Positions 6,450 through 6,710 of a stretch of 13,427 nt of DNA are shown piece after piece. This DNA is from a virus. Its lineage: Duplodnaviria; Heunggongvirae; Uroviricota; Caudoviricetes. The notes beneath the pieces are model-generated. The model ran no database searches. It was given only the letters and a program-made list of their open reading frames with translations, and was not told where the DNA came from. Where the stretch lies: positions 1 through 13,427 of IMG/VR virus record IMGVR_UViG_2529292909_000008; one strand, written 5' to 3'. Position 1 is the stretch's first letter, and every line of letters begins with the position of its first letter. The position numbers and the translations under genes are program-made.

Positions 6450-6617
6450 ATGTCGCGCGTCAATCCTCTATCTTCGCTGTCATTGTTGGCGGTTCTGGTT
6501 TTAGCGGGGTGTAGTAGTCAGGCTCCGCAACCGTTGAAAAAGGGCGAAAAAGCGATAGATGTAGCGAGCGTCGTGCGGCAGAAGATGCCTGCGAGCGTGA
6601 AAGACCGCGATGTATAG
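6450..6617 (+). pseudogene. yaiW: yaiW lipoprotein gene, 5' fragment only (55 codons), truncated by the prophage insertion
   Basis: Good Shine-Dalgarno (AAGGAG) 7 nt upstream of ATG 6450; lipoprotein signal peptide with lipobox (LLAVLVLAGC); frame ends at TAG 6615-6617 exactly where host-like sequence gives way to the TG-initiated prophage end. Full-length YaiW is several hundred residues (from memory). Confidence 0.7.
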
Positions 6618-6710
6618 CGCGGCGATTTTTTTGATACCGATTTGCATTTCATTTGATACCGCTGAAAAACGCCGATACGCAACTTATTTGATACTAAATC
6701 GGCGCTTTTC
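6611..6710. repeat. Prophage terminal region with three direct copies of TTTGATAC, candidate transposase binding sites (attR-like)
   Basis: TTTGATAC at 6630-6637, 6652-6659 and 6687-6694, with a fourth GATAC at 6674-6678, all in one orientation within 90 bp of the TG terminus. This resembles the multiple MuA binding sites at Mu ends in layout, not in sequence. Confidence 0.5.

Follow-up and report, generated by a model that had tools for sequence, protein, structure and literature searches.

The insertion of a prophage cuts the lipoprotein gene yaiW of E. coli DEC6D in two. With high confidence, we attribute this to a Mu-like phage of the Sp18 type that inserted directly after G6612 of the window (the whole stretch of DNA analysed here, 13,427 nucleotides), of which positions 6613–13427 are the right arm of the prophage. 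The window shows the right (mom-proximal, attR) end; the genes of the arm are mostly on the minus strand, and the arm runs off the end of the contig. The analysis shows that yaiW, which lies just downstream of sbmA, is knocked out in DEC6D, assigns a 13.4-kb draft contig to its strain and establishes the exact phage terminus.

The whole window corresponds to contig AIFY01000016.1 of assembly GCA_000249655.2, and the 55-amino-acid product of its truncated yaiW is the protein entry EHV77452.1 of E. coli DEC6D. Positions 277–6612, which carry yaiT, iprA, ampH, sbmA and yaiW, differ from E. coli K-12 by one substitution and one single-base gap in ~6.3 kb. The contig starts inside a copy of IS1 (window 1–276), in which an open reading frame (ORF) at 16–261 matches DDE_Tnp_IS1. 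This copy abuts yaiT 186 nt into the K-12 gene, and the window (277–2997) lacks the IS3 by which yaiT is split in K-12.

The border between host and phage was placed by alignment with K-12. The window is identical to K-12 yaiW (100%) through G6612 and diverges from 6613, where K-12 reads CCTGGGCG and the window reads TATAGCG. The 5' fragment of yaiW (6450–6612, plus strand) comprises codons 1–54 and the first base of codon 55, and retains the signal peptide and lipobox. The original prediction, made from the sequence, had yaiW stop after 55 codons at TAG (6615–6617), in agreement with the ORF call (6450–6617); 54 of these codons are native, codon 55 (GTA) is a host/phage hybrid and the TAG is phage-derived. 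It also had TGTATAG follow directly after the stop; the sequence is present, but the stop codon sits within it. The 5'-TG terminus that it proposed has to be moved, as the TG at 6611–6612 is yaiW sequence in the K-12 alignment and the phage starts with 5'-TA at 6613.

Beyond the border, positions 6613–13427 align along their full 6.8 kb, at 99.8% identity, with the right arms of several prophages, including those of E. coli 102651 and FORC_069. These relatives are complete prophages of ~39.7 kb at other sites in other E. coli, which bears out the claim that the junction is a Mu-type transposable prophage end. They encode a repressor, a Ner-like protein, a transposase, a MuB-type ATPase, Gam and Mor, and carry genes for lysis, a Mu-like head, a contractile tail and a serine invertase with an invertible tail-fibre segment, with com and mom at the end. 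Their A gene matches Pfam Mu-transpos_C and HTH_Tnp_Mu_1 and their B gene Phage-MuB_C and AAA_22; this contig carries neither gene. Counted from the right end, the first 1405 nt are 96.7% identical to prophage Sp18 of the Sakai strain, and the agreement with Sp18 and its relatives in nucleotide sequence and gene order extends to the termini. Of 5426 complete E. coli genomes, 232 contain the end, in as many as four copies each. The Sp18-type element is a known and common E. coli prophage family, and its insertion in yaiW is an ordinary event. Published work describes Sp18 as intact and Mu-like, with DNA that is packaged and does not circularise (PMC2669165), and reports that its insertion site differs between strains (PMC7430833). 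A literature search on JNE082796 gave nothing useful. In three relatives, RefSeq annotates a 'tRNA-OTHER' of 80–88 nt (L002, 21863–21950; L003, 19513–19592; L004, 19832–19911), located between head-morphogenesis genes and on the opposite strand to the surrounding genes.

The right terminus is the same in every copy. A terminal block, TATAGCGCG (6613–6621, plus strand), begins each of them whatever the flank; the start TATAGCGCGG is common to nine copies with different flanks, while the preceding base is variable. When the 148-nt end was used as a query, all of the matches listed, from a total of 283 E. coli copies, started at its first nucleotide (6613). Canonical Mu-type ends are 5'-TG/CA-3'. 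The Sp18-type element departs from these canonical 5'-TG...CA-3' dinucleotides, with a right end that begins 5'-TA in nine of nine copies and always reads 5'-TATAGCG. The left end is polymorphic: six relatives have TGTAACC, and two others have TATAACC, as does DEC6D.

Three direct repeats had been noted near the end, and these were confirmed. The motif TTTGATAC occurs on the plus strand at 6630, 6652 and 6687 (18, 40 and 75 nt from the terminus), as part of a 16-nt unit, GCNNTTNNTTTGATAC, which a repeat finder located at 6622, 6644 and 6679 (22 and 35 nt apart). A fourth copy of the motif at 658 is unrelated. By chance, the complete window should contain about 0.54 copies; four were not attained in any of 200 shuffles. 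All on the plus strand, the putative transposase-binding repeats are R1 (TTTGATACC, 6630–6638, nt 18–26 from the terminus), R2 (TTTGATACC, 6652–6660, 22 nt after R1) and R3 (TTTGATACT, 6687–6695, 35 nt after R2). The left end of the relatives carries the same repeat at nt 18, 113 and 165 in inverted orientation, which places the start of the first TTTGATACC at nt 18 from either terminus. The element has, in this respect, what is expected of a Mu-like phage: an array of direct repeats at each end, inverted between the ends.

The same layout is found across genera. In the right ends of Yersinia phage vB_YpM_5 and Klebsiella phage Kp4866-3, the terminus TA.AGCGCG is invariant, as are the three TTGATAC cores, which keep their positions (18, 40 and ~75) while the spacers have diverged. 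The TTTGATAC repeats are probably transposase-binding sites, because their positions are conserved in these phages of the same transposase lineage. Sp18 has been credited with six putative transposase-binding sites (PMC2628397).

R3 is enclosed by a 13-bp inverted repeat (6664–6710, minus strand) with arms GAAAAACGCCGAT and ATCGGCGCTTTTC. On folding, the minus-strand RNA downstream of mom gave −26.1 kcal/mol (z = −3.6) and ended in a U run. This inverted repeat is a candidate intrinsic terminator for mom, possibly active in both directions, and would overlap a putative transposase-binding site. Its arms show no obvious conservation in the Yersinia and Klebsiella phages, and an Rfam search of the window returned no match.

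Further into the arm, the genes follow the order found in Mu, and the right end carries both a com-mom module and an invertible tail-fibre segment of the Gin type. The DNA adenine modification gene mom (6741–7478, minus strand) matches Pfam Mom (E = 2e-77) and its product is 79.5% identical in amino acids to Mu Mom. It is preceded by com, the translational activator of mom (7432–7632, minus strand; Pfam Zn_ribbon_Com, E = 2e-12), which is annotated as Com family in the relatives. A cargo module (8484–11157, minus strand) comprises, by Pfam, DUF826, DUF1378 and a NanS-p-like SASA/DUF6645 esterase. The esterase gene is ~70% identical in nucleotides to those found in Stx-converting phages and in other lambdoid phages, a similarity that suggests exchange between lambdoid and Mu-like prophages. 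The Gin-type serine invertase (11243–11815, minus strand; Pfam Resolvase and HTH_7) is 70% identical in nucleotides to Mu gin. Self-matches delimit the invertible tail-fibre segment (11877–13227) by inverted repeats of ~140 nt (11877–12019 and 13087–13227). Inside it, on the plus strand, lies a tail-fibre assembly gene (12305–12826; Pfam Caudo_TAP and the annotation of relatives). The 3' part of a tail-fibre gene (12858–13427, minus strand), taken from the gene call, is cut by the contig end and is homologous to an 882-nt gene of the relatives. One orientation of the segment provides an alternative fibre C terminus together with an assembly chaperone; the orientation expressed in the window provides a short fibre C terminus without its own chaperone gene. 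The contig ends ~200 nt past the outer inverted repeat.

Compared with the relatives, the phage arm has five single-base indels (9435, 9671, 11591, 11648 and 12111). Single-base insertions at 9435 and 9671 break the esterase gene, which is an intact gene of 2055 nt in the relatives; a −1/+1 pair in the invertase gene (11591 and 11648) scrambles 19 codons; and the indel at 12111 falls in the tail-fibre fragment. These are probably errors in the draft, because the same contig has a comparable error in sbmA, where a run of five G in K-12 is reduced to four at 5307. The sbmA indel shortens the called gene and is absent from a second (Logan) assembly.

We then looked for the other side of the insertion in DEC6D. 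The far junction was modelled as the left end of the family, followed by GATG and the distal part of K-12 yaiW, with an ORF starting at an ATG inside the phage end. The prediction made with the TATAACC-type left end, which is known from FORC_069 and M18, is a protein of 317 amino acids (MIHLVID-AWAKDL...) that corresponds exactly to entry EHV77089.1 (ECDEC6D_0505) of E. coli DEC6D. In this protein, the left end of the phage contributes six residues, after which YaiW continues in frame from Asp54; its gene is on a contig of 146,951 bp, a different one from the window. The distal part of yaiW that had been predicted beyond the far end of the prophage is represented by EHV77089.1, from the same strain as EHV77452.1. 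The protein collection has no entry for the counterpart (MIHLVTD...) expected from a left end of the TGTAACC type.

The fusion also reports on the bases at the junction. For the reading frame to continue at Asp54, ...GGTTATA must be followed immediately by GAT-GCC and nothing else, which means that GATG flanks the prophage on either side; with a 5-bp duplication, the predicted protein would begin MIHLVIRCL.... The far junction would read ...TTTGATACC...GATTCACCTGGTTATA, then GATG and then CCTGGGCG, with the phage left end ...ATGATTCACCTGGTTATA directly upstream of GATGCCTGGGCG. From the protein match and the relatives, we infer both a full-length prophage in DEC6D and these exact far-junction nucleotides. 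The protein collection also holds a YaiW of 286 amino acids with an internal start (P0121), which is compatible with a 4-bp and a 5-bp duplication alike. A homologue search with the chimaeric protein returned only representatives of full-length YaiW clusters. In exact-pattern searches, the right junction was absent from the GTDB representative genomes and IMG/VR, and the predicted left junction from IMG/VR and the JGI metagenomes.

As the window shows the right arm only, with the middle of the prophage outside it, the DEC6D prophage could be an internally deleted or defective remnant and not a full-length inducible phage. Such derivatives occur: in E. coli DLI.5a, the element in ypdB (L015, NZ_CP103972.1, locus 368–10820) is internally deleted to 10.4 kb and has lost most of its genome, yet keeps both ends, the right arm, the repressor-side genes and the 4-bp duplication. 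The frameshifts in the esterase gene and the −1/+1 pair in the invertase gene could likewise be signs of decay. However, the right arm is contiguous over 6.8 kb at 99.8% identity to full-length copies, the sbmA error in the same contig makes draft errors the probable source of the indels, and both prophage ends are present in DEC6D. We consider a remnant unlikely and prefer a full-length Sp18-type prophage.

It is highly improbable that the junction between yaiW and the phage is a chimaera of a fragmented draft assembly. The contig is admittedly short (13.4 kb), starts in IS1, ends in an invertible repeat and has indel errors. Nevertheless, a separate Logan assembly of SRR094136 carries the same right junction, the break falls exactly at the terminus common to the other copies (among the matches listed of 283), and the reciprocal fusion of the phage left end to yaiW is encoded in the same strain. 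One Logan contig stops 19 nt into the phage, and several phage copies were considered as the cause; this was rejected, since the break lies inside a run of seven T and the last k-mer still holds yaiW.

The mode of insertion was examined through the relatives of the prophage. Near-identical copies sit in lafT, elfC, gspM/yghD, ypdB, hsdR (type I R-subunit), torZ, sorM and an Stx2c phage, and there are at least nine different insertion sites, with a short target duplication. In E. coli M18 (L016, NZ_CP010219.1), the prophage lies in the R-subunit gene of a type I restriction system of the EcoR124 type, and a mom-carrying phage has therefore knocked out a restriction enzyme of its host. Across the 5426 complete E. 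coli genomes, no copy lies in yaiW. These observations support the claim of transposition over site-specific integration. Integrase-driven integration at yaiW has in its favour only the general point that many prophages use fixed attachment sites, and its probability is negligible: the 232 complete genomes with the element carry it elsewhere, at many sites, the full-length relatives have genes for a MuB-like ATPase and a transposase of the Mu type but no annotated integrase, and 4-bp duplications of unrelated sequence flank the insertions.

The target duplication of Mu is 5 bp, the length that the original prediction had also assumed here. For the Sp18-type element it is 4 bp in every case. 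A 4-bp duplication was found in all eight relatives for which both ends were read (L002, L003, L004, L006, L009, L015, L016 and L017), and the fifth flanking base matched in none of the eight. At elfC, TTAG occurs once in the empty site of K-12 and flanks the prophage on either side in FORC_069. The depositors of LC727881 likewise annotated a 4-bp duplication. In DEC6D, the proximal copy of the duplication is GATG (6609–6612), on the evidence of the eight relatives and the DEC6D fusion protein. A literature search for reports of a 4-bp duplication in Mu-like prophages gave nothing useful.

Taken together, these data allow us to propose how transposition into yaiW may have proceeded. A DDE transposase that is a distant relative of MuA would act with a MuB-like ATPase; the genes of both would lie outside this contig, at the far left of the prophage. 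The transposase would bind three direct TTTGATAC(C/T) repeats at each end (here R1–R3) and pair the ends. The 3' ends, ...GGTTA(C/T)A-3' on the left and ...CGCTATA-3' on the right (minus strand), would be joined to target phosphates staggered by 4 bp, and repair of the gaps would duplicate GATG. The insertion cuts YaiW to 54 native residues plus Val-stop on the near side and creates a fusion ORF, MIHLVI joined to YaiW 54–364, on the far side. The binding of the repeats by the transposase, the identities of the 3' ends, the strand-transfer chemistry and the 4-bp stagger are what we infer from sequence.

A terminal CA is near-universal in Mu, retroviral and many other DDE elements. The 4-bp/TA pattern of the sequences is solid, being found in eight of eight relatives and borne out by the DEC6D fusion. 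We tentatively raise the possibility, while leaning against it, that the Sp18-type elements and their Yersinia and Klebsiella relatives might form a mechanistically distinct Mu-like branch with a 4-bp stagger and a transferred right end, or sometimes both transferred ends, terminating in TA-3'. We found no formal description of a 4-bp stagger combined with a TA-3' transferred end; this feature of the Sp18-type transposase lineage is a modest point that may merit a proper description. In practice, E. coli prophages annotated as 'Mu-like' are mostly not relatives of Mu in their transposition module, but have end repeats of their own, a right terminus that is TA and a duplication of 4 bp. Tools seeking TG...CA ends and 5-bp duplications will misplace the borders of Sp18-type prophages by 1–2 bp, as happened in the original prediction.

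The prophage in yaiW is closest to Sp18 of O157:H7 Sakai, Phi804-3 and Mu_JNE082796, with which it shares the termini TGTAACC... / ...CGCTATA, the TTTGATAC arrays and the 4-bp duplication. As in Sp18, the gene order is invertase, esterase, DUF1378, DUF826, com and mom. It differs from Sp18 in its esterase, invertase and tail-fibre region, which is mosaic at 68–89% identity. The window copy instead belongs to the sub-lineage of FORC_069 and 102651 (99.8%), and its yaiW site is found in no complete genome.

The nearest isolated relatives by transposase are Yersinia phages vB_YpM_5/6 (79%), Klebsiella phage Kp4866-3 (57%) and SuMu (44%). The Yersinia phages and Kp4866-3 resemble the window in the right-end TA.AGCGCG and in the TTGATAC sites at nt 18, 40 and ~75, and differ in their hosts and in the spacers and the rest of the arm, which have diverged.

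The element works like Mu, yet is not a Muvirus in its transposition module. That it is Mu itself or a close Muvirus (D108 or SfMu) has next to no probability, although its Mom shares 77–80% amino acid identity with the Mom proteins of Mu, SfMu and D108, and gin and mom align to Mu at ~70% nucleotide identity. Nucleotide alignment to Mu is confined to mom, gin and a tail-fibre piece of 87 nt (70–80% identity). The end region, by alignment and megablast, has no nucleotide match to Mu, D108 or SfMu, as anticipated when the element was first proposed to be distinct from Mu. The family transposase is 22% identical to MuA and the B protein 49% identical to MuB. Judged by Mu-related nucleotides, type of transposase and ends, the element falls outside Muvirus.

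In overall organization, both are transposable temperate myoviruses with near-random insertion. Like Mu, D108 and SfMu, the Sp18-type element encodes a MuB homologue and a Gin invertase, the latter together with an invertible tail-fibre segment, and carries com-mom at its right end. The ends of Mu have a compact R1–R3 and a split L1–L3; the Sp18-type ends are alike in having three direct repeats each, contiguous on the right and split by a gap on the left. The TTTGATAC repeats are, however, unrelated to those of Mu, the right terminus is 5'-TA and not 5'-TG, and the duplication is 4 bp versus 5 bp. Finally, whereas Mu has no genes between gin and com, the Sp18-type element carries ~3.6 kb of cargo there.
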